From sequence record PZ445436.1: a stretch of 64,000 nt of DNA; one strand, written 5' to 3'. Below are positions 6,618 through 59,276 of the stretch, piece by piece. The notes beneath the pieces were generated by a model. It was not told the origin of the DNA. It was given only the letters and a program-made list of their open reading frames with translations, and made no database searches. The translations under genes were made by a program, and so were the position numbers. This stretch comes from a phage. Every line of letters starts with the position of its first letter. The stretch's first letter is position 1.

Positions 6618-7820
<1,203 letters not shown>

Positions 7821-12049: not shown

Positions 12050-12100
12050 AAATTTTCCGCTTAGTTAATAGATAGTGACTCGTCCATGAGTCAAATTATA

Positions 12101-15756: not shown

Positions 15757-15801
15757 TTAGTACCTTATATAAATTATAATACATTTTATGAAGCTGAATA
15801 A

Positions 15802-16149: not shown

Positions 16150-16168
16150 ATTTCCGCCACGCGTTATT

Positions 16169-16998: not shown

Positions 16999-17241
16999 TC
17001 AAACAGACTTTTTCACAATTTTCCAATCAGCTTTAAACTGATCGACGTCAGAATGATAAATCCAAAATCCTGCGCTTTCACCGTCTTCATAAAGCGGACA
17101 CCCATCACATTCATCTTCCCATCCCATGCCACGTAAAAGGTGTTCAGCTTTTTCAACAAGTTCAGAATCTTTACCGATGATATTAAAATACCATTTACCT
17201 CTAACTTCCGAATCTTTGATGCTCTGACGTTGTAATCTCAT
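16999..17241 (-). CDS. hypothetical protein
   Basis: 80-aa ORF; early promoter upstream. Confidence 0.5.
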   Translation of the reverse strand: MRLQRQSIKDSEVRGKWYFNIIGKDSELVEKAEHLLRGMGWEDECDGCPLYEDGESAGFWIYHSDVDQFKADWKIVKKSV

Positions 17242-17267
17242 TTTATTCTCCTCAAGTTGATAAGGCT

Positions 17268-17297
17268 ATAGTATCATTACCATAGCCCGTTGTAAAC
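17268..17297 (-). promoter_or_regulatory. T4 early-type promoter
   Basis: GTTTAC, 18 nt, TGATACTAT; -10 flanked by GGCTAT/ATAGCC inverted repeat. Confidence 0.6.
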
Positions 17298-17299
17298 AA

Positions 17300-17560
17300 T
17301 TATTTTTGAATTTTATCGAGCCACTTACCAAGCTTAATCATTTCTTTAGTAGCCTTTTCCATACTTCTGAACTTGACCAATAGAGGATAGGTATCGACAC
17401 CCATAACTAAACTGGTTACAAGACTGTGTTCACCCACAAGCCATAACGAATACGTTTGAATATCGAGCCCGTAATTTCTGTCTTTATGGACCCGTACACC
17501 CATCACTTCAAATTTCTCACTAGCTTTTTCTACCGCATCCAGGAAATCATCTTTAGTCAT
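17300..17560 (-). CDS. hypothetical protein
   Basis: 86 aa from ATG 17558-17560 (avoids 41-nt overlap of longer track ORF). Confidence 0.45.
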   Translation of the reverse strand: MTKDDFLDAVEKASEKFEVMGVRVHKDRNYGLDIQTYSLWLVGEHSLVTSLVMGVDTYPLLVKFRSMEKATKEMIKLGKWLDKIQK

Positions 17561-17985: not shown

Positions 17986-18213
17986 TTATTGTTCAATCAG
18001 TCCCATGTAAAATTCTGCGTCTTCGGCATCCATGCCATCACAATATTCATTAGCCATAAAGCGGGTGAGGTCTTCAAGAGGACCTTCAACAACAATTTGA
18101 ATACTCCAAAATTTAGAATCTTGCACGCTTGTGATACTAAGTTCAGGATAACGATTACGAATAATTTCTTCAATATATTCAAAATCAACAACATCAATAT
18201 CAACTTTAGCCAT
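17986..18213 (-). CDS. hypothetical acidic protein
   Basis: 75 aa from ATG 18211-18213 with AAAGAGGAAA SD; early promoter -10 lies inside the longer track ORF. Confidence 0.5.
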
Positions 18214-18256
18214 ATTATTTTCCTCTTTAATCATCAGCAGTATTGCCGATAGTTGT

Positions 18257-18286
18257 ATAGTACCATGGAAGGACAAGGATGTAAAC
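18257..18286 (-). promoter_or_regulatory. T4 early-type promoter
   Basis: GTTTAC, 18 nt, TGGTACTAT; A/T-rich UP region. Confidence 0.65.
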
Positions 18287-18317
18287 CGTTTTGTGAAAAA
18301 ATTTTTGAAATAAAAAA

Positions 18318-18341
18318 AGGGGACCTCTAGGGTCCCCAATT
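18318..18341 (-). terminator. rho-independent terminator after gene 32
   Basis: GGGGACCC-UAGA-GGUCCCC followed by UUUUUUUAUUU. Confidence 0.75.
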
Positions 18342-19268: not shown

Positions 19269-19335
19269 TTTTATTTCCTTTTTAATTTAATTAACAGTTG
19301 GTGCTATGACGATGTATGACCTCATAGCTGGTCAG
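19269..19335 (-). promoter_or_regulatory. gene 32 mRNA leader: H-type pseudoknot plus A/U-rich operator for translational autorepression
   Basis: minus-strand CUGACCAGCUAUGAGGUCAUACAUCGUCAUAGCAC (stems UGACC/GGUCA and GCUAUGA/UCAUAGC) then UUAAUUAAAUUAAAAAGGAAAUAAAAAUG. Confidence 0.7.
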
Positions 19336-19351
19336 TGAGATAATTATAATC

Positions 19352-19359
19352 TATTTATA
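19352..19359 (-). promoter_or_regulatory. late promoter motif TATAAATA upstream of gene 32
   Basis: exact match on minus strand; MotA-box-like TGCTTAT and a TATAAT also nearby. Confidence 0.5.
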
Positions 19360-19367
19360 ATAAGCAA

Positions 19368-20021
19368 TTAATACTTGCAAGATTTCACAGTTTCAATAAA
19401 AACTTTTTTAGCTTCCTGTGAATCAATATTTAAAATTTTTCTATAAGCCTTTAACTTTATAGAATAATTATTCCAGACTAAATTATCAGTCTGTTCATCA
19501 TGTTTATCAATTATATTTAAAAATGAATCAAGCAAGATAAACGTCTCAAACGAAATTATGTTCGATTGCAGAAGTTTAAAAATATAACTTGATTGAACCT
19601 TTGGATTATATTCAAAGATTTCTTTAAAAGCAGAAACTTCAACTTTTTTACTAAAATAATAAATGTTGCGAATATCTTCTTCAAACTTAAATTTAATTTG
19701 CTTTAAGCGTCCGATATATTCACGATAAAACACAAGTGCATCAGCGTCAGAGATGTCGCCAATCCAAGCATCTTGGTTAGCAACCAAATTACTTATAAAG
19801 ATTAAAGCAAGTTCCTTTAATTTATATTTTTCTGATAACTTCTGGAAAAAATACTTATCCCTTCGCTTTTGATAAGCGGCATCAGACACCCGCATGCACC
19901 AATTATACTTAATTACATCATACTTTCCATTCATATGCTGTTTTATCATTAAGTATAATTTATAAACTGATTTACCATCAATGTATCTTTCACCACCAGC
20001 AGGCATGCGGAGTTTAATCAT
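19368..20021 (-). CDS. 59: gp59 helicase loader
   Basis: 217 aa, T4 gp59 length and position. Confidence 0.9.
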   Translation of the reverse strand: MIKLRMPAGGERYIDGKSVYKLYLMIKQHMNGKYDVIKYNWCMRVSDAAYQKRRDKYFFQKLSEKYKLKELALIFISNLVANQDAWIGDISDADALVFYREYIGRLKQIKFKFEEDIRNIYYFSKKVEVSAFKEIFEYNPKVQSSYIFKLLQSNIISFETFILLDSFLNIIDKHDEQTDNLVWNNYSIKLKAYRKILNIDSQEAKKVFIETVKSCKY

Positions 20022-20356
20022 AGTAGAAAATCTAATGTATTAGTTTTTTCACAACGAACAACAGAAGGACGTAAAAGATTTTCGTCAATAGCTTCTGACT
20101 GAATTTTTTCAATTATACCCGAAGGAATAAATTTAGCAAATTGAGTTTCAGGAATAGAGTTTTCTTCCAAGAATGCTGTCGTAGCTTCAAGATAACTCAT
20201 TCCAAACTCTTCTACCATTTTTTCAATAATAAATCCATTTTCTTGACGATCAAGAAGCTTTGCTATTTCATCCTTTTCTTTCTTGATTGAAAGTTCTTTT
20301 TCTGAAAGACCGGTCTCATCGACCGGACGAATATCATTTAGAGAAAACTGTGTCAT
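20018..20356 (-). CDS. 33: gp33 late transcription co-activator
   Basis: 112 aa from ATG 20354-20356 (MTQFSLNDIRP...). Confidence 0.85.
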   Translation of the reverse strand: MTQFSLNDIRPVDETGLSEKELSIKKEKDEIAKLLDRQENGFIIEKMVEEFGMSYLEATTAFLEENSIPETQFAKFIPSGIIEKIQSEAIDENLLRPSVVRCEKTNTLDFLL

Positions 20357-21633: not shown

Positions 21634-24600
21634 ATGGCCGAGATTAAAAGAAAGTTCAGAGCAGAAGATGGTCTGGACGCAGGTGGTGATAAAATAATCA
21701 ACGTAGCTTTAGCTGATCGTGCCGTAGGAACTGACGGTGTTAACGTTGATTACTTAATTCAAGAAAACACAGTTCAACAATATGATCCAACTCGTGGATA
21801 TTTAAAAGATTTTGTAATCATTTATGATAACCGCTTTTGGGCTGCTATAAATGATATTCCAAAACCGGCAGGAGCTTTTAATAGCGGACGCTGGAGAGCA
21901 TTACGTACCGATGCTAACTGGATTACGGTTTCATCTGGTTCATATCAATTAAAATCTGGTGAAGCTATTTCGGTTAACACCGCAGCTGGTAATGATATTA
22001 CATTTACTTTACCATCTACCCCAATTGACGGTGATACTATCGTTCTCCAAGATATTGGAGGAAAACCTGGAGTTAACCAAGTTTTAATTGTAGCTCCGGT
22101 GCAAAGTATTGTAAACTTCAGAGGTCAACAGGTACGTTCAGTACTAATGACTCATCCAAAGTCACAGCTAGTTTTAATTTTTAGTAATCGTCTGTGGCAA
22201 ATGTATGTTGCTGATTATAGTAGAGAAGCTATAGTTGTAACACCAGCAAGTCTCTATCAGGCGCAATCTAATGATTTTATCGTACGTAGATTTACTTCTG
22301 CTGCACCAATTAATGTTAAACTTCCAAGATTTGCTAATCATGGCGATATTATTAATTTCGTTGATTTAGATAAACTGAATCCACTTTATCATACAATTGT
22401 TACTACATACGATGAAACGACTTCAGTACAAGAAGTTGGAACTCATTCCATTGAAGGCCGTACATCAATTGACGGTTTCTTGATGTTTGATGATAATGAG
22501 AAATTGTGGAGATTGTTTGACGGGGATAGTAAAGCACGTTTACGCATTATAACGACTAATTCTAATATTCGTCCAAACGAAGAAGTCATGGTATTTGGTG
22601 CGAATAACGGAACAACTCAAACAATTGAACTTCAGCTTCCAACTAATATTTCTGTTGGTGATACTGTTAAAATTTCCATGAATTACATGAGAAAAGGACA
22701 AACAGTTAAAATCAAAGCTGCCGGTGAAGATAAAATTGCTTCTTCAGTTCAATTGCTGCAATTCCCAAAACGTTCAGAATATCCACCTGAAACTAAATGG
22801 GTGACTGTTCAAGAATTAGTTTTTAACGGTGAAACTAATTATGTTCCAGTTTTGCAACTTGCTTACATAGAAGATTCTGATGGAAAATATTGGGTTGTGC
22901 AACAAAATGTTCCAACTGTAGAAAGAGTCGATTCTTTAAATGATTCTACTAGAGCAAGATTAGGCGTAATTGCTTTAGCTACACAAGCTCAAGCTAATGT
23001 CGATTTAGAAAATTCTCCACAAAAAGAATTAGCAATTACTCCAGAAACATTAGCTAACCGTACTGCTACTGAAACTCGCAGAGGTATTGCAAGAATAGCA
23101 ACTACTGCTCAAGTGAATCAGAACACCACATTCTCTTTTGCTGATGATATTATCATCACTCCTAAAAAGCTGAATGAAAGAACTGCTACAGAAACTCGCA
23201 GAGGTGTCGCAGAAATTGCTACGCAGCAAGAAACTAATGCAGGAACCGATGACACTACAATCATCACTCCTAAAAAGCTTCAAGCTCGTCAAGGTTCTGA
23301 ATCATTATCTGGTATTGTAACTTTTGTATCTACTGCAGGTGCTACTCCAGCTTCTAGCCGTGAATTAAATGGTACGAATGTTTATAATAAAAACACTAAT
23401 AATTTAGTTGTTTCGCCAAAAGCTTTGGATCAGTATAAAGCTACGCCTACTCAACAGGGTGCAGTAATTTTAGCCGTTGAAAGTGAAGTAATTGCTGGAC
23501 AAAGCCAAGAAGGATGGGCAAATGCTGTTGTAACGCCAGAAACGTTACACAAAAAGACATCAACTGATGCAAGAATTGGTTTAATTGAAATTGCTACGCA
23601 AAGTGAAGTTAATACAGGAACTGATTATACTCGTGCAGTCACTCCTAAAACTTTAAATGACCGTAGAGCAACTGAAAGTTTAAGTGGTATAGCTGAAATT
23701 GCTACGCAAGTTGAATTCGACGCAGGCGTCGACGATACTCGTATCTCTACACCATTAAAAATTAAAACCAGATTTAATAGTACTGATCGTACTTCTGTTG
23801 TTGCTCTATCTGGATTAGTTGAATCAGGAACTCTCTGGGACCATTATACCCTTAATATTCTTGAAGCAAATGAGACACAGCGTGGTACACTTCGTGTAGC
23901 TACACAGGTTGAAGCTGCTGCAGGAACATTAGATAATGTTTTAATAACTCCTAAAAAGCTTTTAGGTACTAAATCTACTGAAGCACAGGAAGGTGTTATT
24001 AAAGTTGCAACTCAAGCTGAAACCGTAGCTGGAACATCAGCAAATACTGCTGTATCTCCAAAAAATTTAAAATGGATTGTCCAGTCTGAACCAACATGGG
24101 CTGCTACTACGGCGATTCGTGGATTCGTTAAAACTTCATCCGGTTCTATTACATTTGTTGGTAATGATACAGTTGGTTCAACACAACCTTTAGAATCATA
24201 TGAGAAAAATAGCTATGCAGTATCACCATATGAATTAAACCGTGTACTTGCTAACTATTTGCCATTGAAAGCTAAAGCCGTAGATAGTAATTTATTAGAT
24301 GGCCTAGATTCATCTCAGTTCATTCGTAGGGACATTGCACAGACGGTTAATGGTTCACTAACCTTAACACAACAAACGAATCTGAGTGCCCCTCTCGTAT
24401 CATCTAGTACTGCTACGTTTGGTGGTTCAGTTTCGGCAAATAGTACATTAACTATTTCTAATACTGGAACGGCAACTCGTCTGATTTTTGAGAAAGGACC
24501 TCAAACTGGAACTAACCCAGCGCAGACGATGACTATTAGAGTTTGGGGAAATCAGTTTGGTGGTGGATCAGATACAACACGTTCTACTGTATTTGAAGTT

Positions 24601-30300: not shown

Positions 30301-30636
30301 CCCAATAACATATTCTATGACGGATATAATAGTGTAGGTGCAAACGCCAACGCTAAATTCACTGGAACCGTGAACGGTGCTACTGCATGGTCGAATATAG
30401 CCAAAACTTCTTCAGACGGTGCTCATACTCATACTTGGTCTGGTACTACAAGCACTACAGGTAACCATGCTCACACAGTAGGTATTGGTGCTCATACCCA
30501 TACTGTAGGTATCGGTGCTCATACCCACACGGTAGCAATTGGCTCGCATGGTCATACTATCACTGTAAATAGTACAGGTAATACAGAAAACACGGTTAAA
30601 AACATTGCTTTTAACTATATCGTTCGTTTAGCATAA
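27364..30636 (+). CDS. 37: long tail fibre distal subunit gp37 (receptor-recognising tip)
   Basis: 1090 aa; C-terminal His-box repeats (GNHSHTV, GAHTHTV) as in T4-type gp37 tip. Confidence 0.95.
30127..30204 (+). repeat. tandem 30-nt repeat in gene 37 ([10 protein letters not shown] x2 plus partial)
   Basis: units 30127-30156 and 30157-30186 encode identical peptide with 7 synonymous differences. Confidence 0.7.
30481..30561 (+). repeat. His-box repeats in gene 37 tip region
   Basis: GIGAHTHTV x2 then AIGSHGHTI. Confidence 0.7.
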
Positions 30637-33834: not shown

Positions 33835-34470
33835 TCACAGTTCAGATGCTACAGTGATTACTGCTTCAATGTTTTCTGCCGAACGTTTAATGTCAAGATA
33901 CACATTACCGTTTTTAGCGATTTTACATGACATTCCGATGTCAGTAAATTTCTGAATATGATGTTCCATCATTTTGTATCCAAAAATTCGCATGTTTCCA
34001 TTGTTGTTAATTTCAAAATTACGAATTCCGTGAGTGCGTTTTTCTAAAATAGCGAGATAGTTACTGCGATAAGTTTCAACCTTTTTAAGAACAAATCCAT
34101 TTTCATCTAAAAGTTTTAACATGAGGTCTTTATCTTCTTCCATATCGGAAGTAATCTCACGAGCTTTACGAGTTGCTCGTTTTTTCAGCAGTTCCGGAGC
34201 ATTTTCTTGTGCGTATAAAGTTGCTGCATTTGAAATAATATCCTGAGCTTCACCTGTAATGATTAATCCATCACCAGATTTCTCCACCAAGCCTTTTTTA
34301 ATCAATACCCCAATATTACTATTAACTACTGCGTTACCTAAATCTGGATGCACCTCACGAACTTCTGCAGCTGTAATGAAATCTTTCTTAGCAATAGTAA
34401 TTAAAATCGCAGCAGTTTTTTCATTCAGAACATCGTTAGAAGCTTTGATGATGTAAGTTACTTTAGACAT
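33835..34470 (-). CDS. motA: MotA middle-transcription activator
   Basis: 211 aa, matches T4 MotA as recalled; early promoter and upstream terminator. Confidence 0.9.
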   Translation of the reverse strand: MSKVTYIIKASNDVLNEKTAAILITIAKKDFITAAEVREVHPDLGNAVVNSNIGVLIKKGLVEKSGDGLIITGEAQDIISNAATLYAQENAPELLKKRATRKAREITSDMEEDKDLMLKLLDENGFVLKKVETYRSNYLAILEKRTHGIRNFEINNNGNMRIFGYKMMEHHIQKFTDIGMSCKIAKNGNVYLDIKRSAENIEAVITVASEL

Positions 34471-34511
34471 TTTCTAATCTCCGTAATTCTGTATCAGTAG
34501 TTGATAGTTGT

Positions 34512-34541
34512 ATAGTACCACAGTATGCTTTGGTTGTAAAC
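34512..34541 (-). promoter_or_regulatory. T4 early-type promoter for motA
   Basis: GTTTAC, 18 nt, TGGTACTAT. Confidence 0.65.
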
Positions 34542-34571
34542 CGTTTTGTGAAATTTTTTTTTTTTTGAAAT

Positions 34572-34597
34572 AAAAAAGGGAGAGCCGAGGCTCTCCC
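34572..34597 (-). terminator. rho-independent terminator after gene 52 / small ORF
   Basis: GGGAGAGC-CUCG-GCUCUCCC followed by long U tract. Confidence 0.75.
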
Positions 34598-34602
34598 TAA
34601 AA

Positions 34603-34752
34603 TTACTGCATGACTGTGATAACTGTCATGATAACACGTTGAATTCCGAACGCAAGAAGACCTCCTGCTACGGCTGGAACAACACCTAAACCCGCCAGTA
34701 AAATGCTACCAGATACTAATGCAGCGCTTGTAATACCAATGAATGGACTCAT
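34603..34752 (-). CDS. possible 49-aa hydrophobic peptide (52.1-like by position)
   Basis: ATGA overlap with gene 52 stop; MSPFIGITSAALVSGSILLAGLGVVPAVAGGLLAFGIQRVIMTVITVMQ; terminator right after stop. Confidence 0.4.
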   Translation of the reverse strand: MSPFIGITSAALVSGSILLAGLGVVPAVAGGLLAFGIQRVIMTVITVMQ

Positions 34753-36077
34753 TTGATTTCCTCTAAATCTTTGGTGTATTCGGTAACTACATCAGTAGTT
34801 TTCCAATATTCATTTTCTTCTTTTTTAGCTTTAGCTTCTTCAGCAAGTTTCTTTGCTTCGTCGGAAGTCATATGAAAAATATTCATTCCAACTAATTTAT
34901 CAACATAAGAAGAATACATCTCAATTTTAGAAAGTTCTTCGGTCAGTTCTTTACGAGTTTTACCCTGTACAACAATTTCACCTGAAATTACTTTCTTAAT
35001 GAAATGCGCCTTGGCAAAGGCTAAACGAAAAGCTGACTCAGTTTCTTTAATTTTGTTATCAATTCGTTTTTGGACATAAGTTTTACGAACTTCGACGAAG
35101 TCTTTGATTAAATCAACTACGTTATCGTAAACTTGCAGTTTTCCTTTCTCATTAATAACCGTAATATTCTGAGAACGACGCTCAATCAACCCAAAGTCTT
35201 TCATAATTTTTGCATGGCGTTCTTCTTCGTTATCGCTCAAAGAATATTCTTTACGGAATTTAACTTTGAAGCCAAAGCCATGCTCACCACAAGCATCATC
35301 CCATGTAATGAAGCCTTTATCTTCAAGTGGGTCTAAGATTTTACTCACATAAGTTTCACGATCATACTTATACGGAATCTCAGTGATATTCATTTGAGTT
35401 CGTGAAGTAAACTTGTACGTTCCACGAATTTCATATTGACCGTCAATCTCAACGACTTCACCACGAAATTCTGGGAATTCTACCTTCGGTTTAGTTACTT
35501 TCTTTCCTTGAATAGCTTGCAGTACAGCTTTCTTGACAGAAGAAACACTATGAGGAAGAATGTAAGTTGCATAACCAGTTGCAATACCGGAAACGCCATT
35601 AAGAAGAACAGTAGGAATAATAGGCAAATAGAAAGCAGGCGGAATGTGTTCTTTATCTTGATGTACCGGAGCATATTCAGTATCTTTATACACGTTATAG
35701 AAATTTTTACTTATACGAGCAAAAATATAACGACTCGCCGCTGCCTTTTGAACGGTACGAGAACCAAAGTTTCCTTGACCATCTAACAGAGGAAAGTTAT
35801 TATTCCAAGTGTTAGCCATCAAAGCTCCCGCATCTTGCGCAGAGTTTTCGCCATGGTGATATCCAAGGTCCGCTACACCACCTGCGATAGAAGCGAGCTT
35901 ATGAAACTTATCTTTATTTCCTCGTGCCAAATCAAGAGCTCGAGCAATAACAAATCGTTGAACTGGCTTAAATCCATCAATCATATTTGGGATAGCACGA
36001 TTTTCAACCGTGTACATAGCATAAGCCAATGCTTCATTATCAATGATACTTTTTAAATCGCGATTATTCAGTTGCAT
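34749..36077 (-). CDS. 52: DNA topoisomerase II medium subunit gp52
   Basis: 442 aa; GyrA/ParC-like N-terminal breakage-reunion domain. Confidence 0.95.
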   Translation of the reverse strand: MQLNNRDLKSIIDNEALAYAMYTVENRAIPNMIDGFKPVQRFVIARALDLARGNKDKFHKLASIAGGVADLGYHHGENSAQDAGALMANTWNNNFPLLDGQGNFGSRTVQKAAASRYIFARISKNFYNVYKDTEYAPVHQDKEHIPPAFYLPIIPTVLLNGVSGIATGYATYILPHSVSSVKKAVLQAIQGKKVTKPKVEFPEFRGEVVEIDGQYEIRGTYKFTSRTQMNITEIPYKYDRETYVSKILDPLEDKGFITWDDACGEHGFGFKVKFRKEYSLSDNEEERHAKIMKDFGLIERRSQNITVINEKGKLQVYDNVVDLIKDFVEVRKTYVQKRIDNKIKETESAFRLAFAKAHFIKKVISGEIVVQGKTRKELTEELSKIEMYSSYVDKLVGMNIFHMTSDEAKKLAEEAKAKKEENEYWKTTDVVTEYTKDLEEIK

Positions 36078-36081
36078 AAAT

Positions 36082-36222
36082 TTACCATACTAGTGAATGT
36101 AGTGCCATAATAACATCAGAAATGAAAAGCACGACTTGAATTAATCCGAACATTATTCCGTAATATAACGCTATCAATAAAATAGCAAGGGCTAATGAAT
36201 AGCCCAAGATTTTCTTAATCAT
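36082..36222 (-). CDS. possible 46-aa membrane peptide
   Basis: MIKKILGYSLALAILLIALYYGIMFGLIQVVLFISDVIMALHSLVW; overlaps neighbour by 8 nt. Confidence 0.35.
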   Translation of the reverse strand: MIKKILGYSLALAILLIALYYGIMFGLIQVVLFISDVIMALHSLVW

Positions 36223-36370
36223 TAGATAACAACACAAATGTTAAATATGCACACATACCCTGAGCTAAAGCTTGCGAAAACACACTGCTGGCATCGATAC
36301 AGATAGTTAAAACACATGCTACTATCCAACAAATAAATGAAATAACTCCTAATAATTTTGCGATATTCAT
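36215..36370 (-). CDS. possible 51-aa membrane peptide (ac-like by size and position)
   Basis: GAGGAAAAT SD then ATG 36368-36370; MNIAKLLGVISFICWIVACVLTICIDASSVFSQALAQGMCAYLTFVLLSND. Confidence 0.4.
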   Translation of the reverse strand: MNIAKLLGVISFICWIVACVLTICIDASSVFSQALAQGMCAYLTFVLLSND

Positions 36371-36377
36371 ATTTTCC

Positions 36378-36458
36378 TCACTGGCGTCCGAAGACGCCTT
36401 TAGTTTTAAGATTATTACGATAGAACTGCATCACGTGTTCGTTGTGGAAATTACTCAT
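36378..36458 (-). CDS. stp: Stp peptide (26 aa)
   Basis: Encodes [26 protein letters not shown], matching T4 Stp as recalled; 1-nt overlap with ndd stop. Confidence 0.8.
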
Positions 36459-36916
36459 TAATATGCCTGCAAAACGAATTTAAAATTATCAGCCAACATA
36501 CGGTTCATTTCTTCAAGTGTTTGATACTCAGAATGATGATTACGAGTAAACGCCAAAGCTAACTGACCTTTTCCAAATCCCGTCGTCAGAGGTTTCATCT
36601 TAGAAGCAGGCAGATAAAATACTGTGTATGGAACATTGTTATTTGCAATAGTACGTGCAAGCTGAGACCGACGTTGACGAATATGACTTAGAACTGCACT
36701 GAATCCTTGCTTAGAACGCTGATTACCTACATAAAATCGTGCAGACACACATGGATTACTAAATGGACGACCATCTAATTTACTTACTAAAAAGTAAAAT
36801 CCAGGTTTAGACAAAATGTCTTTGTGCGGAGTTCCCAAAAACCATTCACCGCCCTTGATTGTACCAATAACAGTTGCGCCTGCATTGTTCAGATCAGTAA
36901 CAGTCATGTATTTCAT
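36458..36916 (-). CDS. ndd: Ndd nucleoid disruption protein
   Basis: 152 aa from ATG 36914-36916 ([18 protein letters not shown]...) with GAGGAAA SD. Confidence 0.85.
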
Positions 36917-36976
36917 ATTAATTTCCTCTAAATTATTTTCTACTCCAAGGCCGCATGAATACACGCGGCCATTAAA

Positions 36977-37192
36977 TTAATCGTCGCAGTCGACGCTCAA
37001 TTCCCAAAACTCTTCTACGGTATAAGTTTCAGTATCATTTTCAATACAGAAACGTTCATTACTATTGTTTGCTAAAGTAGCATTAACTGTCATTTTTTCG
37101 CTAGTGCTCTTAAGAGGTGAAATGCGAATTAACTGATCACCATTATCTAAACAAAAAATTTCACCAACTTTTACATCTTTAAAAATTTTCAT
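36977..37192 (-). CDS. hypothetical protein
   Basis: 71-aa ORF, GAGGTGA SD. Confidence 0.5.
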   Translation of the reverse strand: MKIFKDVKVGEIFCLDNGDQLIRISPLKSTSEKMTVNATLANNSNERFCIENDTETYTVEEFWELSVDCDD

Positions 37193-37200
37193 AATTCACC

Positions 37201-37308
37201 TCAAGGAGTATAAAATCCGAATGCAGTTGTTGACCATCCCATCCAATATGGAAAATTTGCACCAATGTAAAACATAAGAATATAAAACCAAATGTTTAGT
37301 AAATTCAT
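37201..37308 (-). CDS. possible 35-aa hydrophobic peptide
   Basis: MNLLNIWFYILMFYIGANFPYWMGWSTTAFGFYTP; start shares 1 nt with upstream stop. Confidence 0.35.
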   Translation of the reverse strand: MNLLNIWFYILMFYIGANFPYWMGWSTTAFGFYTP

Positions 37309-37526
37309 TATTTTACACCATTCCAAATTGTTTCAACCACAGATTTTAAACCATTTTGATGAATATCAATTCCGACTACTGTCATCAAATAGATTCCAAC
37401 TACAACTGAACCCAAGGCAAAAATCAGCATGAAAATGAATAAAGCCGGAAAAATATTATCGAAAAACCATTCAATAAATGTAAAAGCACTGCGTTTACGC
37501 TTCATATTTTCCTCACATAAATCCAA
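37308..37526 (-). CDS. small membrane protein
   Basis: 72-aa ORF with central TM helix. Confidence 0.5.
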   Translation of the reverse strand: MDLCEENMKRKRSAFTFIEWFFDNIFPALFIFMLIFALGSVVVGIYLMTVVGIDIHQNGLKSVVETIWNGVK

Positions 37527-37626
37527 AGTAAACGTTTAATACATCAATCATTAAAACGATTGGGAATATACTCAAAACTATTAGTATTATAACTACATTC
37601 CATATAGCTTTAACAATCTTTTTCAT
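37513..37626 (-). CDS. 37-aa membrane peptide
   Basis: GGAGGA SD then ATG 37624-37626; promoter at 37655-37684 lies inside the longer track ORF 37513..37761. Confidence 0.45.
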   Translation of the reverse strand: MKKIVKAIWNVVIILIVLSIFPIVLMIDVLNVYFGFM

Positions 37627-37654
37627 TTTCTGTTCCTCCGTAGTTGATAGGGTA

Positions 37655-37684
37655 ATAGTACCACGGAAGAACAGTCTTGTAAAC
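37655..37684 (-). promoter_or_regulatory. T4 early-type promoter
   Basis: GTTTAC, 18 nt, TACTAT; conserved downstream block CAACTATCAACTACGGAGGA. Confidence 0.6.
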
Positions 37685-37691
37685 AACTTTT

Positions 37692-37790
37692 TTAAAAATA
37701 TTCGTAATAAATGTGAATACCAACTACTACCGCTGAAACCTGTGCAACCCACCACGCACAAGCAATAAGTACAGAATTCAAAATTTTCAT
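37692..37790 (-). CDS. possible 32-aa membrane peptide
   Basis: GAGG SD; MKILNSVLIACAWWVAQVSAVVVGIHIYYEYF. Confidence 0.35.
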   Translation of the reverse strand: MKILNSVLIACAWWVAQVSAVVVGIHIYYEYF

Positions 37791-37873
37791 AATAACCTCA
37801 TCACAAAAGTAAATGTTAAACAAATTAATGGAATACTAATTAACCAAACAAAACACCACCATAATGAACTCAT
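37787..37873 (-). CDS. possible 28-aa hydrophobic peptide
   Basis: ATGA overlaps at both ends; MSSLWWCFVWLISIPLICLTFTFVMRLL. Confidence 0.3.
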   Translation of the reverse strand: MSSLWWCFVWLISIPLICLTFTFVMRLL

Positions 37874-38133
37874 AGTTCAATCTCAATGATTTCCAGGTGT
37901 TTTTGTTTTATTGCCTTTTTAACACAATCATGGACTAAATATGACCATGAATCATTATATTCTCCATTAACTAATCGTTGGAGATCTTCACGTGATGATA
38001 AGTAAGGTTGATCTGATTCCCATTTTGATAAAAATACTGCAGTAAAAATATCTCCTTCACCTGTAGTTGAAGTCGTAAATGCAATAAATTCACCGGTAAT
38101 TTTATGTTTAGCGTAATAAAATTTAAATTTCAT
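37870..38133 (-). CDS. hypothetical protein
   Basis: 87 aa from ATG 38131-38133 with GGAGGAG SD; early promoter lies inside the longer track ORF. Confidence 0.5.
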   Translation of the reverse strand: MKFKFYYAKHKITGEFIAFTTSTTGEGDIFTAVFLSKWESDQPYLSSREDLQRLVNGEYNDSWSYLVHDCVKKAIKQKHLEIIEIEL

Positions 38134-38160
38134 TTTTACTCCTCCGTAGCTGATAGTTGT

Positions 38161-38190
38161 ATAGTACCACGGTCCTTGTGGTATGTAAAC
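38161..38190 (-). promoter_or_regulatory. T4 early-type promoter
   Basis: GTTTAC, 18 nt, TGGTACTAT; same conserved downstream block. Confidence 0.6.
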
Positions 38191-38207
38191 CATTTTGTGA
38201 AATTTTT

Positions 38208-38765
38208 TTAAATGGAAAGATACCATCCGTTGTAGTTGCTTTTTCTTACAACCTTACGAAGGTCTTCTCTGTCACCGATGAACTTCGGAGTGTACTGGAT
38301 GACACCTGGATGAATTTCTTTAGTGTTGAATATAATTATACAGTCAGCGACTTGATGATTTAGAATGGGCCCTAGATTTATTCCAGAACCGTATGGATAC
38401 TCTCCGCTGCATCCTGTTGTTACAGAAATCCAACGTGAGTCAGTTTGGTGTGTCTTAACTTCTACACGAAGCCCGCAGTATCTTGGATGCGCCAATACAT
38501 CCCATGCGTATGTATACGGGTCATTAACATCCTCTTGGCCTTTATTAACATACCCGCTTAACCAATCTGCTACAAAAAATTCTGCGTACACAGCGATACG
38601 ACATCTTTCAATAACTTCTGCTTTATCCTGGTTCGGGTTTTGTTTTAAAGAGTATCTTGCTGTATCAGCAATTTTGACCTTCATTTCACTAGTCAAGTCA
38701 CTGTTCGATAGGGTAAATGTCGGAATCTGAAATAGTCTCTGTAAACCCGGATTCGTTTTCTGCAT
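38208..38765 (-). CDS. denB: endonuclease IV
   Basis: 185 aa, T4 DenB length and position upstream of ndd cluster; AAGGAAAG SD. Confidence 0.75.
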   Translation of the reverse strand: MQKTNPGLQRLFQIPTFTLSNSDLTSEMKVKIADTARYSLKQNPNQDKAEVIERCRIAVYAEFFVADWLSGYVNKGQEDVNDPYTYAWDVLAHPRYCGLRVEVKTHQTDSRWISVTTGCSGEYPYGSGINLGPILNHQVADCIIIFNTKEIHPGVIQYTPKFIGDREDLRKVVRKSNYNGWYLSI

Positions 38766-39261: not shown

Positions 39262-39275
39262 AATTTTCCTTAGTT

Positions 39276-39291
39276 AAGGGCCGAAGCCCTT
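39276..39291 (-). other. CUUCGG hairpin immediately after rIIB stop
   Basis: AAGGGC-UUCG-GCCCUU then SD of next ORF. Confidence 0.6.
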
Positions 39292-40228
39292 ATTTAAATT
39301 GTTCAGTAACGTCTTCAACTACTTCGTATTGGCAGGTACGCATTTTAGCATCGTTGTAATCAATCGGAATTGATACTACATCACGCGGATGTACTTTAAC
39401 TTTTACGACTCGGCTGGTTGAACTGCCAAAGTGACGAATATAAGATTTAGAACACACATGCAGACCACGAGAACAAGTTTGTGTATCATCGTCATTCACA
39501 CGAGTACGCGGCATTTTAACTACTTTACCAGGACTGTTATCAAAGGTGTTTGAGTGACAGTCAAAGTAGTTGTCACGAACTACTTTCCAAGCATAGAAGT
39601 AACCATCTTCTGTAATTTCAATATCGTTTGCTACCAAGAAATCAAAGAGTCGAGATACCGCTTTTTGGCTTGGGTTTTCCAACAGATTTTCCAAGAACGG
39701 AAAATAAAATTCAAAGTTTTCGCCTTTTTCCATCGAGTCAAGAATACGATCAACCAAACCAGACCGCAATTCAATATTTTGATAGAACAAGCTTCCACCT
39801 TCAATTCGAACATCGCCGGAAATATATTTTTCAACAGCACGACGAACATTAATTTTTTGTGCCGCTTCTTCCAGCTTATCTGCTACAAGCAGATTAAGAA
39901 TTTCCTGGAAGTTTGAATGAGTATTAGGAGTTGCGTTATAAGTTACACCGTCAACAGTAATTGAAATGAATTTTTTAGATGCATTCCAAATAATGTCAGA
40001 TTTAGCAACTGGAGCAATAACTGCATCGCTATTAACTTTAATTGTAATATCACCGCTAATAGTAACTTTAGAGCGTTTAGCTTCTTCAGCATTTTTCAAA
40101 ACACGACGAATTGTGTCAACCGATACACCTTGCCAATCAGCCAATTCCTGTTGGGTGTAATTACCACTTGAATACAGCTTAACAATTTCAGCTTGTTCGT
40201 TTTTGGTCAGGCATTTAATATTGTACAT
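39290..40228 (-). CDS. rIIB: rIIB rapid-lysis protein
   Basis: 312 aa, matches T4 rIIB as recalled. Confidence 0.9.
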   Translation of the reverse strand: MYNIKCLTKNEQAEIVKLYSSGNYTQQELADWQGVSVDTIRRVLKNAEEAKRSKVTISGDITIKVNSDAVIAPVAKSDIIWNASKKFISITVDGVTYNATPNTHSNFQEILNLLVADKLEEAAQKINVRRAVEKYISGDVRIEGGSLFYQNIELRSGLVDRILDSMEKGENFEFYFPFLENLLENPSQKAVSRLFDFLVANDIEITEDGYFYAWKVVRDNYFDCHSNTFDNSPGKVVKMPRTRVNDDDTQTCSRGLHVCSKSYIRHFGSSTSRVVKVKVHPRDVVSIPIDYNDAKMRTCQYEVVEDVTEQFK

Positions 40229-42686: not shown

Positions 42687-44506
42687 TACTGGCTCATCCA
42701 TTCTTTACGAAGGTCAGCATTATCTCCCATGAGCATTTCAAAAAGCTCTTTCCAGTTCTCAGGAAGTTTAACAACATCATATACTGGGTTTTGAATCATC
42801 TCACGATATTCAGATTTTTCCAAAGAGCCAAGTCCCTTAATATAACGGATGCTATGTTTAGGTAGAGCATCTTTGGCACTCTCATATTCAGCGACTGTAT
42901 AAAACCATTCTTGTTTTTTACCGACCTGAGCGATGATTACAGGAGTTTTGACAAAGCGAATTCGTCCTTGCTCAAACAATTCTGGCCAATTACTAAAAAA
43001 CCCGAGCAGAGAAGGATAAATGCTTCCTAGACCATCATGGTCAGCATCAGTCATAATAGCAATATTATGATAATTCAAGTTTTCAGCTTTTTCACCAAGA
43101 ACTAATCCAGTGATTGCGCAAATATCAAATAGTTCTTTATTTTTAAGCATATCAGCATATGACATACCCCAACTGTTGAGAACTTTACCACGCAATGGAT
43201 AACCACCATGAAGTTCTTTATCACGAACATCAATAAGATATCCGATAGCAGAATCACCCTCAGTCAAGAAAAGAGTAGTATCAGCATCTTTACCGCAAAG
43301 ATTCGCTTTGATATGTTTATGAACCTTAGCTTTAGAAGCCTTTTTAGCTGCTTTAGTTTCTGCTGCTTTTTCTGCCGCCAATTTACGAGCCAAAGCAGCT
43401 TCAATAATCGGCATTAGAATTGCTTCATTATTTAGAATAGCACGTGAAATCTTTTTAGCATCAAGTTGAATATGACTACGGATTTCACCAAATGGAGAAG
43501 TCAAACGCTCTTTAGTTTGAGAATCAAATCGCATGTTTTTCATATCACGGACAAACATAACGATAGTCAAACATTCTTTGACACGTGCTTTAGTTACATC
43601 AATTTTGAACTTACGTTTGATTTGTGGAATAAGGTCTTCACAAATATCATCCATAACACAGTCAATGTGATGGCCACCATTCTTAGTATGAATGTTATTG
43701 ACGTATGTTAATTGACGAAAACCATCTGGTGAACGACCAACCGCAATAGAACAATTTTCTTGTTCTTGAACGATAGCATGTTCATCATACTGTCGTGCGT
43801 ATTTCTTAAAATTACCCTGAACCTTTTTACCATTAAAGGTAAATTGAATATCAGGATAAACAACAGCAAGTGTCTGGAGACGATCCAGTGTAATGTCAAG
43901 ATAAACTTGGGACAGCTCATTAGTTTCAAATGACATAAAATCTGGAATGAAAGTAACACGAGTTCCTTTCCATTTTCCAGGAATAGTTTCCCAGGATTTA
44001 TTTTCCATGCCATTTGAACAACGAACTACAATATTATTTTGACCATCGCCAGTTTCACCGACAAACATCACAGAAAAAATGTTAGTTAAACTAGAACCAA
44101 CACCATTCATACCACCGGTGACACGTTCTTTATCATCACCAAAGTTACCACCCGCTTTTGGAATAGTCCAAGCAGCAACTGGACCAGGAATTTCTTCACC
44201 GGTAGGTGTTTTAACCATCGCTTGTGGAATACCACGACCGTTATCTTCAACTGTTACTTGATTGTTTTTGATAGTAACATTAATTTTATTTGCGAATTTA
44301 AACTTAGTACGAATACCTTCATCTACTGAGTTATCGATAATTTCATCAATAAGCTTAACAAGACCAGGTACATACTGAACACTTTCCCATTTACCAAACA
44401 GAAAGCGCTCATGCATTTCATTAGCAGAAGAGCCAATATACATGCCGCTACGCTTTTTGATATGTTCAATATCGCTCAGAATTTTAATTTCATTCTTAAT
44501 CATCAC
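42686..44506 (-). CDS. 39: DNA topoisomerase II large (ATPase, GyrB-like) subunit gp39, unsplit
   Basis: 606 aa continuous ORF with GHKL ATPase and Toprim regions; corresponds to T4 gp39 plus gp60 as one protein. Confidence 0.9.
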   Translation of the reverse strand: MMIKNEIKILSDIEHIKKRSGMYIGSSANEMHERFLFGKWESVQYVPGLVKLIDEIIDNSVDEGIRTKFKFANKINVTIKNNQVTVEDNGRGIPQAMVKTPTGEEIPGPVAAWTIPKAGGNFGDDKERVTGGMNGVGSSLTNIFSVMFVGETGDGQNNIVVRCSNGMENKSWETIPGKWKGTRVTFIPDFMSFETNELSQVYLDITLDRLQTLAVVYPDIQFTFNGKKVQGNFKKYARQYDEHAIVQEQENCSIAVGRSPDGFRQLTYVNNIHTKNGGHHIDCVMDDICEDLIPQIKRKFKIDVTKARVKECLTIVMFVRDMKNMRFDSQTKERLTSPFGEIRSHIQLDAKKISRAILNNEAILMPIIEAALARKLAAEKAAETKAAKKASKAKVHKHIKANLCGKDADTTLFLTEGDSAIGYLIDVRDKELHGGYPLRGKVLNSWGMSYADMLKNKELFDICAITGLVLGEKAENLNYHNIAIMTDADHDGLGSIYPSLLGFFSNWPELFEQGRIRFVKTPVIIAQVGKKQEWFYTVAEYESAKDALPKHSIRYIKGLGSLEKSEYREMIQNPVYDVVKLPENWKELFEMLMGDNADLRKEWMSQ

Positions 44507-46045: not shown

Positions 46046-46327
46046 TTAATTGAACAGTGGAGCGATGCGTTTCAGAAGAGTAGCAGCACCTTTAGCGAAT
46101 TTTACATCATGAAAAACAGTTTCTTCTTCCGTTACAACACGAGCTTTAATGTTTTCACAATCCCAATTTTTGCGAACAATCTTCAAAAGCTGCAGTAAAT
46201 CTTTACATTCAGCAATATCGATAACACATCCACGAGAATCTTCCATTATCGCACGATAACCGTAAGCCATACCATAATCATTGAAAGATTGCTCGATGAT
46301 AATTAAATTTTCCATTTTATTCTCCAA
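46046..46327 (-). CDS. hypothetical protein
   Basis: 93-aa ORF. Confidence 0.5.
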   Translation of the reverse strand: MENKMENLIIIEQSFNDYGMAYGYRAIMEDSRGCVIDIAECKDLLQLLKIVRKNWDCENIKARVVTEEETVFHDVKFAKGAATLLKRIAPLFN

Positions 46328-46412
46328 GTTGTTTTCTGTATCAGTAGTTGATATTGATATAGTACCATAATCAACTACTGATGTATATAGTTTTATGAAA
46401 AAATTTTAAACT

Positions 46413-46904
46413 TTATGCATAGCGAGCTTTGCTATAGTGTTTAATCCAACTTTCAGGAATGACTTTGTATGTTCCTAAAAATACCGCGTTGTATAACTTA
46501 ACGCCATCTTCTACCCATTGATCAGTAATGTATGCACACATAGCGCGAGTACGGTTAACAACACCTTCCTCACCTTCAGTAAATTCAAACTCATAAGGAG
46601 CAACGAACTTAATAGCCTGACCGAGTTTCCACTTAAAGTCTACACCTACATGCGAAGTATCAATCGTTTCAATTCCTTTAGCAGGAACAGCTTTCAAAAA
46701 CGCAGATTCAAGAAATTTCGCACGAACATAGCCAAACTGAGGTTTAGACTTTCCATCTTTAGGAATGATACGCACTTTTACTTCAGAATCTTCATCTTTA
46801 ACACCGTGTTTAAGCTGAATGCTTACAACTTCGACCAATTTTCCTGCCGCTTTAGAGCGGGATTTATCAGATACACGAGCTAATTCACCAATATTAATAA
46901 TCAT
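46413..46904 (-). CDS. hypothetical protein (motB-like by size and position)
   Basis: 163-aa ORF; C-terminal motif DQWVEDGVKLYNAV shared with next ORF. Confidence 0.45.
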   Translation of the reverse strand: MIINIGELARVSDKSRSKAAGKLVEVVSIQLKHGVKDEDSEVKVRIIPKDGKSKPQFGYVRAKFLESAFLKAVPAKGIETIDTSHVGVDFKWKLGQAIKFVAPYEFEFTEGEEGVVNRTRAMCAYITDQWVEDGVKLYNAVFLGTYKVIPESWIKHYSKARYA

Positions 46905-46948
46905 AGTTATCTCTCACTTGTTAAAAAGATTTTATACTCCACGGGACC

Positions 46949-46978
46949 ATTATACTCTGGTCCCAAGAGTTTGTAAAC
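46949..46978 (-). promoter_or_regulatory. T4 early-type promoter
   Basis: GTTTAC, 18 nt, TATAAT; -10 inside GGGACCA/TGGTCCC inverted repeat. Confidence 0.6.
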
Positions 46979-47415
46979 TAGCTTACACGAACATTAATCA
47001 CTGCGCTGCGAGGAACTACAGAGTACTCTCCAGCATGAACTACGTTCAGAAGTTCAACACCATCTTCAATCCACTGATCAGTCACCCATCCACCCACAGG
47101 ATTCGCGAATGGACGACGAATATAAACTGCCTTACACAGTAGATCAGTTGGATCTTCAGGTTTTTCAATTTCTGTCAATAGACTAAAATCTTTTTCATAA
47201 ATAATAAGCGGTGATACCATTCCATAATAGTTTCTAATTTCAATATACATCATACCGATAAGAATTCCGCTATTAACACTAATAACAGTAAAAGGATATC
47301 CGCCAGTTAAAGCAAGAAGTTCACAAAACTTATTATGAGCTGTATTAGACAGTACCGGAAAATTCTTAATTTCATCAAATTTTTTCAATTGATAAACAGC
47401 ATTATTTTTAATCAT
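46978..47415 (-). CDS. hypothetical protein, paralogous C-terminus to 46413..46904
   Basis: 145 aa; DQWIEDGVELLNVV. Confidence 0.45.
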   Translation of the reverse strand: MIKNNAVYQLKKFDEIKNFPVLSNTAHNKFCELLALTGGYPFTVISVNSGILIGMMYIEIRNYYGMVSPLIIYEKDFSLLTEIEKPEDPTDLLCKAVYIRRPFANPVGGWVTDQWIEDGVELLNVVHAGEYSVVPRSAVINVRVS

Positions 47416-47425
47416 AATTTTCTCT

Positions 47426-47938
47426 TTAATCTAAGGTAATAAAGCCTTTTAATTCGGCATGCGATTTGCGGAACATTACTTGATGTCCGCCAATGATAAC
47501 TTGGTCATCTGGCACTTCATAAATCGCAATGTACATTCCACGTTCTTTTAAGTCTTCACGCTCTTCTCGAGTGAACCATCTCATCATATCATATTCACTA
47601 GCGAAAGCAAAATGATATAATGCAATAAACCATAATGGAATATAATTTTCAATTCGTGAATAATCTTTATTCCATTTAGTTTTAATAACATCATTAGCAT
47701 TTTCAACTAATAACTTATCATCGTGTGGAATAGGAATACTTTCATGGCTTTCATAATTATCGCTATGATGATGAAATGATGATGAATTAATACCACAAAA
47801 TTTTAACCAAGTTCGAGTTTTCATAGAATCAAATCCACGATAAGGAGTTGATTGAACGCATAACTCTTGCCTAATTTTCATTATACCACTATCATCATTT
47901 AATGCACTAAACGATGATTCAACACGATAAATTTTCAT
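47426..47938 (-). CDS. hypothetical protein
   Basis: 170 aa from ATG 47936-47938 with GAGGA SD; promoter -10 lies inside longer track ORF. Confidence 0.5.
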   Translation of the reverse strand: MKIYRVESSFSALNDDSGIMKIRQELCVQSTPYRGFDSMKTRTWLKFCGINSSSFHHHSDNYESHESIPIPHDDKLLVENANDVIKTKWNKDYSRIENYIPLWFIALYHFAFASEYDMMRWFTREEREDLKERGMYIAIYEVPDDQVIIGGHQVMFRKSHAELKGFITLD

Positions 47939-47965
47939 TTTATTATCCTCAGTAGCTATGGTGTT

Positions 47966-47995
47966 ATAATACCACAACTAACCGAGGAAGTAAAC
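47966..47995 (-). promoter_or_regulatory. T4 early-type promoter
   Basis: GTTTAC, 18 nt, TGGTATTAT. Confidence 0.6.
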
Positions 47996-48001
47996 AACTT
48001 T

Positions 48002-58623: not shown

Positions 58624-58916
58624 TATTCACCTACCACTTCAGCGATGATATTTTTATTATTAAAGTTTTTATCGCAATACAGAACATAATTATACTGCAT
58701 TACACCACCAGACTTAAGCTGTTTTTGCACTTCGGCTTTCATTTCAGGACGATCGCGCTCAACGATATTCATAATATCTGCTTCAATTTGGGTTTCAACT
58801 TCAGTCTGATCCGCAATCATAGACCATTCGCACAAATCTTTATCATAGCCTGCCATAGCAGGCTGAGCAGCACAAGAAGCTAAAGCAAAAATTGTAGCAA
58901 AGATAAATTTTTTCAT
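58623..58916 (-). CDS. sp: Spackle periplasmic protein
   Basis: 97 aa with cleavable signal peptide; T4 Sp length and position. Confidence 0.75.
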   Translation of the reverse strand: MKKFIFATIFALASCAAQPAMAGYDKDLCEWSMIADQTEVETQIEADIMNIVERDRPEMKAEVQKQLKSGGVMQYNYVLYCDKNFNNKNIIAEVVGE

Positions 58917-58976
58917 GATAATCTCCTCAGTAGTTTATGTTTATATAGTATCTCAATTTCCAATAAAAGTAAACAG

Positions 58977-59276
58977 TTATTTTAAAATTTTTGCATAATC
59001 ACATGTTACAAACTGTTTCTCTAGCTTGACGATTTTACGAAAGTATCTTTTGCATTGGCGAATCTGTCGCTTCGTAGGACGTACAGCAAACTTAATAAAT
59101 TCCACTCGACCAAATGGAGGGCTTTCTTCTGCTGGAATATCTAACACCAATTCCCACGTATCTGCAATAAGTGCTTTGAATTGCGTATTTTTCCTGACGT
59201 TATACGGAGTAGGTTTAAATAAAACAATATGCATATTATCCTCGGCAATCCACTTCACATACTTTCTTGTCATCAA
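58977..59276 (-). CDS. hypothetical protein (61.4-like)
   Basis: ORF; true start probably internal ATG near 59234 to avoid 41-nt overlap with dmd. Confidence 0.45.
   Translation of the reverse strand: MMTRKYVKWIAEDNMHIVLFKPTPYNVRKNTQFKALIADTWELVLDIPAEESPPFGRVEFIKFAVRPTKRQIRQCKRYFRKIVKLEKQFVTCDYAKILK

Follow-up and report, generated by a model that had tools for sequence, protein, structure and literature searches.

Why do several early promoters of one phage resemble each other not only where RNA polymerase binds, but also across the start site and into the leader? The question arises in a 64,000-nucleotide stretch of phage DNA (record PZ445436.1; the whole stretch is hereafter the window), in which five promoters, all on the minus strand, stand upstream of frd.3, motA, an ndd.4-like 37-aa gene, an 87-aa open reading frame (ORF) just after denB, and an 89-aa ORF after motB. 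A sequence-only reading of this DNA had taken them for a duplicated promoter-leader cassette placed before unrelated small genes. Each promoter is designated here by the prefix P and the window coordinate at which its -10 hexamer begins (P18262, P34517, P37660, P38166, and P46364, in the order above). Our answer, to which we give a probability of about 0.8, is that the copies of this T4-type early promoter subclass are recombining cassettes of promoter, leader, and Shine-Dalgarno (SD) sequence that follow the mechanism of the promoter-early stem-loop (PeSL) elements.

Judged by its closest matches, the window is a segment of a Tequatrovirus (T4-like) genome. Positions 34000-38500 align over their full length, at 99% identity, with the Escherichia phages FriedrichMiescher and teqdroes (megablast), and 481 near-full-length matches to the same interval are found among T4-like phages. 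The minus strand shows the T4 gene order (gene 32, frd.3-frd, ..., motA, 52, ac, stp, ndd, ndd.1-6, denB, rIIB, rIIA, 39, goF, cef, motB, dexA). The downstream genes motA, frd.3, the ndd cluster, and the motB/cef region occupy T4 early-gene positions on that strand, and the same promoters are present in T4. Our detailed comparison covers about ten genomes, among them T4, a sister phage, and IMG/VR contigs.

A promoter family conserved in segments

All five promoters were recovered on the minus strand where the sequence-only reading had placed them. A scan gives TTTACA-17-TACTAT with TG at 18285-18257, 34540-34512, 37683-37655, and 38189-38161, and the fifth is the variant P46364, with ATATACA for GTTTACA. 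By their architecture, the sites are real early (host sigma-70) promoters. Four of them read GTTTACA-N13-(G/A)TGGTACTAT; P46364 has only 4/6 matches to TTGACA but keeps TGn/-10, and an A/T-rich UP element (AAAAATTTTTTCACAAAAYG or a close variant) runs from -60 to -38 at 5/5 sites. From the standard spacing, with the -10 at -12 to -7 and ACAAC as the discriminator, the A of TATC is the likely +1, and the transcript would begin AUCAACUAC. Promoter strength, early timing, and start site are thus predicted from sequence.

A generic scan for sigma-70 -35/-10 pairs showed no excess over shuffles (58 found vs 60 expected) and is uninformative in this AT-rich genome. Since such matches occur at chance level, the signal lies in the extended module and not in the hexamers. 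In an independent repeat search, the same five sites and 58927-58993 came out as the largest direct-repeat family of the window, D1, whose 67-nt copies are 64-82% identical to that of motA. In addition, the 18-mer TGGTACTATACAACTATC has three exact copies (P18262, P34517, and P38166) and one copy with three mismatches (P46364), where ~0.02 would be expected by chance.

To see how far the similarity runs, pairwise identity was calculated by segment for the five sites and for eight other early promoters of the window. Two blocks exceed the generic early-promoter consensus, the UP-element/-35 block (TTTCACAAAAYGGTTTACA) and TGGTACTAT-ACAAC-TATC-AACTAC, which spans ~-16 to +9. Identity among the five sites is 0.63 in the UP region (0.29 among the eight others), 0.89 at the -35, and 0.94 at the extended -10, and the 13-bp spacer between the two blocks falls to background (0.32). 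The tetramer TATC at the transcription start is invariant (1.00 vs 0.38), positions +4 to +9 remain similar (0.70 vs 0.31), and +10 to +15 are again at background (0.37). The UP region, TATC, and +4 to +9 all exceed the other early promoters, so the similarity is not confined to the generic consensus, the outcome that the sequence-only reading had named as its refutation, and the observation stands and is statistically solid.

The further claim of a near-identical block through start site and leader does not hold throughout: in the proposed form, with its SD, the block agrees with P38166 and, roughly, with P37660, and with no other site. The proposed consensus GTGGTACTATACAACTATCAACTACNGAGGA matches only 38140-38170 (1 mismatch) and 34491-34521 (3 mismatches) and, returning only 2/5 sites in a literal search, is too strict as written. 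P37660 departs from it with TACCC in place of ACAAC, and the similarity of P18262 to the other copies ends after +3. Only P37660 and P38166 have their SD within the shared block; the motA promoter and P46364 share a different, longer leader (AACTACTGATACAGAA) and have their SD 15-20 nt further on. As for the genes, they are indeed unrelated, their proteins belonging to five different PHROG families without mutual BLASTP similarity, but not all are small, as MotA is a 211-aa essential regulator.

The family is a discrete TACTAT/ACAAC-TATC subclass rather than an instance of the generic consensus. When the sister genome and T4 were scanned for GTTTAC-type promoters, a TACTAT -10 was followed by N5-YATC in 13/14 cases in the sister genome, against 3/23 TATAAT/TATTAT promoters (Fisher p = 2e-6), and in 14/16 against 2/24 cases in T4 (Fisher p = 5e-7). 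The class makes up ~40% of candidate early promoters (16/40 in T4, 14/37 in the sister phage). In T4, TACTAT-N5-TATCAACTAC occurs eight times, upstream of motA, the mini-ORF after denB, cef, imm.1, nrdC.8, denV, e.8, and trna.4. AACTAT (-4 to +2), a second hexamer resembling a -10, was weighed as an overlapping promoter or a sigma-dependent pause element, and was dropped because its position is unlike that of known pause elements.

Part of the pattern reaches beyond the genus. Early promoters near motA, ndd, and denB in Mosigvirus, Dhakavirus, Karamvirus, and Jiaodavirus keep the -10 followed by N5 and (C)TATCAA; because the pattern is kept in these four other genera, the TATCAA start-site context is old and probably functional. 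The full module, as a 76-nt query, matches 549 phage records at ~3900 places, 6-9 per genome, and all 60 records listed, spread down the ranking, are T4-sized genomes from phages of E. coli, Shigella, Yersinia, and related hosts. Among the matches listed, blastn did not find the full module outside Tequatrovirus-type records, the other genera sharing only -10 + N5 + TATCAA. Klebsiella phages are absent from the ten most frequent organism names of the module matches, though 157 Klebsiella records matched the surrounding 4.5-kb region.

Mosaic exchange and clustered breakpoints

We typed 69 TACTAT-class promoters from T4, the window phage, the sister phage, and eight IMG/VR contigs by spacer, discriminator, leader, and downstream gene. 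The four vary independently, so that the promoters are mosaics. The frd.3 promoter has the spacer AGCATAAAGCTTT in T4 and TCCTTGTCCTTCC in the window, and three non-orthologous loci carry the T4 spacer as well. Before the 87-aa ORF, the window has a short leader of the GGAGGAG type (AGCTACGGAGGAGTAAAA), and three other contigs have the long type AACTGATACGGATTTGGAGAGTAAA (the TGATACGGATTTGGAGA leader), which stands before six unrelated genes. Most phages have TACCC as the ndd.4 discriminator; one contig and phage Lutter have ACAAC. When P37660 was aligned three ways, the differences between Lutter and the window formed a tight cluster, spacer and ACAAC included, within DNA that is otherwise 97-99% identical, and these differences bring ~60 bp to identity with the paralogous promoter of nrdC.8. 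On this alignment, the cluster is a conversion patch copied from the paralogue.

The 3' edge of the block also coincides with a change of gene content. At P38166, homology between window and T4 ends exactly there (38143). The 87-aa ORF (phrog_2390; 37870-38133, minus) is absent from T4, where 7000-7045 keeps only ATGAAAATCGCTGAGATTGAACTATGA, an 8-codon remnant with the last codons of the ORF, behind a different leader. In the whole-window comparison with T4, 5/46 homology breakpoints lie within 902 bp, the 1.4% of the window that separates the -10 from ATG+20 at 15 early promoters, where 0.65 would be expected (binomial p = 5e-4). With parts that recombine independently between phages, similarity beyond the generic consensus, and unrelated genes downstream, the description as a duplicated promoter-leader cassette is borne out.

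A separate arrangement was seen in IMG/VR contig 3300045988_128797 (1250-1750). There, the promoter that stands before motA in the window (spacer ACCAAAGCATACT) precedes a different gene (start ATGAAATTTAAAATCGAA...), and motA lies 345 bp downstream behind a second, different promoter (AGACC-TATC). Both leaders share AAATAAATGAACTGAAAC, so that a cassette seems to have been inserted between repeats of the leader.

We propose the following scheme. Host sigma-70 RNA polymerase would read these promoters immediately after infection. Their common layout comprises an A/T-rich, consensus-like UP element, the -35 GTTTACA, a free 13-bp spacer, the extended -10 TGG-TACTAT, the discriminator ACAAC (or TACCC/ATCAA), and TATC, followed by the short G-poor leader and then either GGAGGA directly or the second leader type (UGAUACrGA...GGAGAAUAAA). 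The similarity would be partly functional, as the UP element, -35, TGn/-10, and start-site context are expected polymerase contacts. The remainder would reflect common descent, with the ~8 dispersed copies in each genome kept alike through gene conversion and homologous recombination, and the mosaics would be products of that recombination. The copies would act as portable promoter/leader/SD cassettes, at whose 3' edge new small ORFs could be inserted, deleted, or swapped.

Several points weigh against this reading. Unseen direct selection, rather than homogenisation by recombination, could maintain the ACAAC and AACTAC positions. The detailed comparison rests on only ~10 genomes, and the promoters and their start site are derived from the DNA together with knowledge of T4. 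Finally, the breakpoints are placed only approximately, at the ends of BLAST blocks, and their enrichment is partly trivial, because whole-gene insertions and deletions necessarily have their ends between genes, where early promoters take up much of the scarce space.

The modules and associated hairpins are collected in Table 1. The motA module is identical in T4, at 163649. For the sixth member of the repeat family, the T4 counterpart (20085) immediately precedes the sp (spackle) gene (19758-20051).

Table 1. Promoter-leader modules and associated structures, in window coordinates
Feature	Coordinates	Strand	Content
motA promoter-leader module (P34517)	34468..34565	-	UP element, -35 GTTTACA, spacer ACCAAAGCATACT, extended -10 GTGGTACTAT, ACAAC, TATC (likely start), leader AACTACTGATACAGAATTACGGAGATTAGAAA, ATG at 34470
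Intrinsic-terminator-like hairpin directly upstream of motA promoter	34577..34598	-	AGGGAGAGCC..GGCTCTCCCT, then T run
P38166 promoter-leader module, just after denB	38131..38214	-	Full block GTGGTACTATACAACTATCAGCTACGGAGGAG, then ATG (38133) of 87-aa ORF (phrog_2390)
P37660 promoter-leader module before ndd.4-like 37-aa gene	37624..37708	-	Discriminator TACCC, leader AACTACGGAGGAACAGAAA
15-bp inverted repeat around -10 of P37660	37630..37674	-	5' arm CTGTTCTTCCGTGGT = spacer + start of extended -10; 3' arm ACTACGGAGGAACAG = leader block + SD
P18262 promoter-leader module after gene 32 terminator, before frd.3 (75 aa)	18211..18310	-	UP/-35 block and TGGTACTATACAACTATC shared, then own leader
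Intrinsic-terminator-like hairpin downstream of gene 32, directly upstream of frd.3 promoter	18319..18337	-	
P46364 variant module after motB	46313..46412	-	-35 ATATACA, ATGGTACTAT, ATCAA, TATC; leader AACTACTGATACAGAAAACAACTTGGAGAATAAA, then 89-aa ORF (phrog_3720)
Perfect 13-bp inverted repeat around -10 of P46364	46340..46382	-	ATCAGTAGTTGAT / ATCAACTACTGAT; leader block = 3' arm
Sixth repeat-family member, absent from the sequence-only list	58914..58998	-	GAGATACTAT ... AACTACTGAGGAG, then ATG
Related TACTAT-class early promoter before frd.1, absent from the sequence-only list	17239..17321	-	ATGATACTAT AGCCT TATC AACTTGAGGAGAATAAA; inverted repeat spans -10 (z = -3.5)

Other differences from T4 and other repeats were also recorded in the window. 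According to the annotations of T4 and the sister phage, mobile-element differences from T4 lie at 11373-12105, 15204-16164, 19331-19367, and 43021-43086. T4 has ~0.6-1.1 kb extra where the nrdB intron/I-TevIII, nrdB.1/mobE, the td intron/I-TevI, segG, and 60.1/mobA beside the split gene 60 are annotated, and the sister phage is annotated with a single 1818-bp topoisomerase large-subunit gene where T4 has the split gene 60. In the td-frd interval, the window holds ~400 bp absent from T4, where the sister phage annotates a putative homing endonuclease. The gp38 adhesin gene contains three tandem 27-nt units (CATGCTCACACAGTAGGTATTGGTGCT-like; 30466-30546, plus), and the proximal long-tail-fibre gene several dispersed 45-68-nt repeats (23035-23960, plus). 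The GGGCCGAAGCCC hairpin occurs in two copies with similar flanks (repeat family D17; 1504-1541 and 39263-39300), one of them between rIIB and the next gene downstream; the copies are probably terminators of shared origin.

Translational gating, convergence, and RNA processing as alternatives

The alternative that survives best is compatible with recombining cassettes and concerns the main selective reason for keeping the block. Here, leader block and SD would be retained as the 3' arm of a hairpin. In read-through RNA, the hairpin would hide the SD and shield GGAG from RegB, and RNA begun at the gene's own promoter would lack the 5' arm and be translated. At P37660, ACTACGGAGGAACAG reads as the reverse complement of the spacer joined to GTGGT. 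The hairpin predicted for read-through RNA has 15 bp (-22.7 kcal/mol, z = -3.8), leaves the -10 in its loop, and pairs the whole SD, whereas RNA from the promoter's own start is unstructured (-2 kcal/mol). Read-through into P37660 is expected, since the interval from P38166 contains no terminator. Hairpins are also predicted at the paralogue upstream of nrdC.8 (z = -5.6) and at the dexA promoter at 47971, there with the SD included (z = -5.9). P46364 has a perfect 13-bp repeat (-20.2 kcal/mol, z = -5.4) whose 3' arm is formed by the leader block ATCAACTACTGAT without the SD. Karamvirus and Jiaodavirus promoters have differing spacers that pair with their own SDs (z = -4.1, -3.3, -2.7, and -2.1). 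In the sister phage, 12-13/32 early promoters carry a strong repeat between -35 and ATG, with arm sequences unrelated between promoters. Strongly structured regions upstream of start codons (z <= -3) are found at 8/27 genes with an early promoter vs 12/140 without (Fisher p = 0.006), and RNA structure blocks RegB (PMC3014915). These repeats suggest a gate that would allow translation only from the gene's own promoter.

With the repeat missing at three of the five sites, the gate cannot account for the block in general. The motA (z = 0.16) and frd.3 (z = -0.3) promoters carry the block without a significant repeat around the -10, and P38166 has a weak 7-bp stem only (z = -2.1). In many promoters, the 3' arm stops before the start site, short of the SD, and strong SD-pairing hairpins are only modestly enriched (15% vs 6%). 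Compensatory changes were sought in the P37660/nrdC.8 stem, and none was found at the two variable base pairs at its foot, which change uncompensated in nrdC.8. An association of GTGGT with ACTAC, expected from their complementarity, was likewise not found among the typed promoters, where ACTAC is as common with ATGGT. As the main reason for the block, we consider gating possible but doubtful. Slightly less probable still, and offered tentatively, is the wider proposal that in T4-like phages a sizeable fraction of early promoters lies inside a spacer-leader/SD inverted repeat with the leader block as one arm, so that the gene would be translated and exposed to RegB only from own-promoter RNA and be silent on read-through. 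If true, the repeats could also be the stem-loops that make the cassettes recombinogenic.

Further repeats bracketing the -10 were seen at other early promoters of the window (minus strand; 1905-1975, 17240-17300, 46900-46985, and 47935-48000; z = -4.8, -3.5, -3.9, and -5.9). The dexA promoter and the regB promoter of the sister phage have the SD in the 3' arm. Separately, the P46364 spacer (46370-46382, minus), which becomes AUCAGUAGUUGAU when transcribed by read-through, is an exact antisense match to AUCAACUACUGAU, the leader of motA and, in T4, of the e.8, imm.1, and post-denB transcripts; pairing in trans is conceivable but purely speculative.

Gating by a hairpin has precedents in T4. 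McPheeters in 1986 and Gott in 1988 reportedly described it for genes e, soc, 49, and I-TevI, in which a late or middle promoter is enclosed by a hairpin, and longer early transcripts have their SD hidden in it. The arrangement at P37660, the nrdC.8 paralogue, and dexA is alike in that the 3' arm contains the SD, the start falls between the two arms, and transcription from upstream would continue through. It differs in that the embedded promoter is early, so the putative gate would split immediate-early from read-through (delayed-early) expression rather than early from late, and in that the hairpin is absent at 3/5 sites. A mobE hairpin is also mentioned in the literature (PMC3014915).

Could the copies instead have been optimised independently, each conserved position being a polymerase or ribosome contact, with no duplication or recombination? 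Standard contacts do include TGn/-10 and the Y(-1)R(+1) start context, four further genera also have TATCAA around the start, and the upstream block resembles the full UP-element consensus of E. coli that Estrem et al. are said to have defined in 1998. T4 early promoters are also known to have extra consensus regions (PMC2988021). Such convergence, however, leaves unexplained the 16-20-nt identical leaders before unrelated genes (AACTACTGATACAGAA; AACTGATACGGATTTGGAGAATAAA), the identical 13-bp spacers at non-orthologous loci, the clustered conversion patch within 97-99% identical DNA, and the homology break exactly at the block edge. In addition, the other half of early promoters (TATAAT/TATTAT) work without the block. 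Pure convergence is already contradicted by the mosaic and conversion patterns, and we regard it as improbable.

Least probable of all is that the block serves as a recognition element for a factor acting on early mRNA or early promoters, be it RegB/S1, RNase E, or an early-promoter shut-off factor, although T4 motA is a documented RegB substrate (PMC1702504) and the shut-off mechanism of early promoters is still not understood (PMC3014915). The RegB/S1 site consists of GGAG and seven A-rich nt 3' of it (T4 consensus GGAGAAUAAAA), and deletions showed that nothing 5' of GGAG is needed (Durand et al. 2006, PMC1702504). The RegB link is therefore half right. Several SDs are good RegB/S1 sites by the pattern GGAGRAYARAA, P46364 and 17273 reading GGAGAAUAAAA exactly and motA GGAGAUUAGAA, with partial fits at P38166 (GGAGGAGUAAA) and P37660 (GGAGGAACAGA), and the presence of GGAG with an A-rich heptamer in early-gene SDs agrees with the published sites. 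The site, however, starts at GGA and runs 3'. The promoter-leader block lies 5', outside it, and was ruled out as the RegB determinant on these deletion data. The frd.3 leader (P18262) has no GGAG at all, no candidate binding protein was found, and Rfam at the gathering threshold gave no match in the 64 kb.

Relation to T4 early promoters and PeSL elements

The T4 early promoter consensus was reportedly compiled by Liebig and Rueger in 1989 and by Miller et al. in 2003. Published descriptions include the -35 GTTTAC, an A-rich UP element, the extended -10 with TGn, and further stretches of consensus besides (Hinton 2010, PMC2988021), all of which recur here. Early-promoter logos end at the start site, and relatives prefer C at -3 to -1 (Nolan et al. 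2006, PMC1524935). What differs is that the family described here is a subclass set by TACTAT plus ACAAC-TATC-AACTAC.

The closest known system is the PeSL. In T4 and PST, PeSLs consist of an AT-rich region and a -35/-10 of the form TTTACW-N17-TAYWAT with SD and ATG at the 3' end; they adjoin insertions and deletions, with the ndd.4/.5 locus as the worked example (Comeau et al. 2014, PMC4122927). The crossovers that give rise to mini-circles in RB49 lie in the interval from the -10 to the SD/ATG (Arbiol et al. 2010, PMC2839356). The modules in the window share with PeSLs the AT-rich region, the early sigma-70-type promoter, and SD plus start codon at the 3' end (PMC2839356, PMC4122927). They are likewise dispersed in many copies (six in the window, 6-9 places per genome across 549 phage records) and adjoin small variable ORFs, with insertion, deletion, and replacement junctions between -10 and SD/ATG and the ndd locus among the published examples. 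They also have an associated stem-loop, here either a terminator hairpin just upstream (motA, frd.3) or a repeat around the -10 (P37660, P46364). Comeau et al. place the T4/PST stem-loops just upstream of the promoter, whereas the position overlapping the -10 was described for RB49; the repeats around the -10 are the PeSL stem-loop in this RB49-type position. The modules differ further in that motA is a core gene and not an ORFan of a hyperplastic region, and in that, for the excision of mini-circles by recombination between copies, the sequence offers indirect evidence only, in the conversion patch and the mosaics.

Because their features agree with the published PeSL cassettes (Arbiol 2010; Comeau 2014), the promoter-leader units belong to an already described class, T4 early promoters or PeSL cassettes, and the finding is a correct rediscovery. 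Such modules drive the first minute of a T4-type infection and appear to be joints for small accessory gene swaps, as the literature already holds, which makes them relevant to host-range adaptation and to the engineering of therapeutic T4-like phages. Relative to that literature, our additions are modest and incremental: the TACTAT/ACAAC-TATC subclass, the exchange of promoters segment by segment, and the inverted repeats that span the -10 of many early promoters and sometimes bury the SD.

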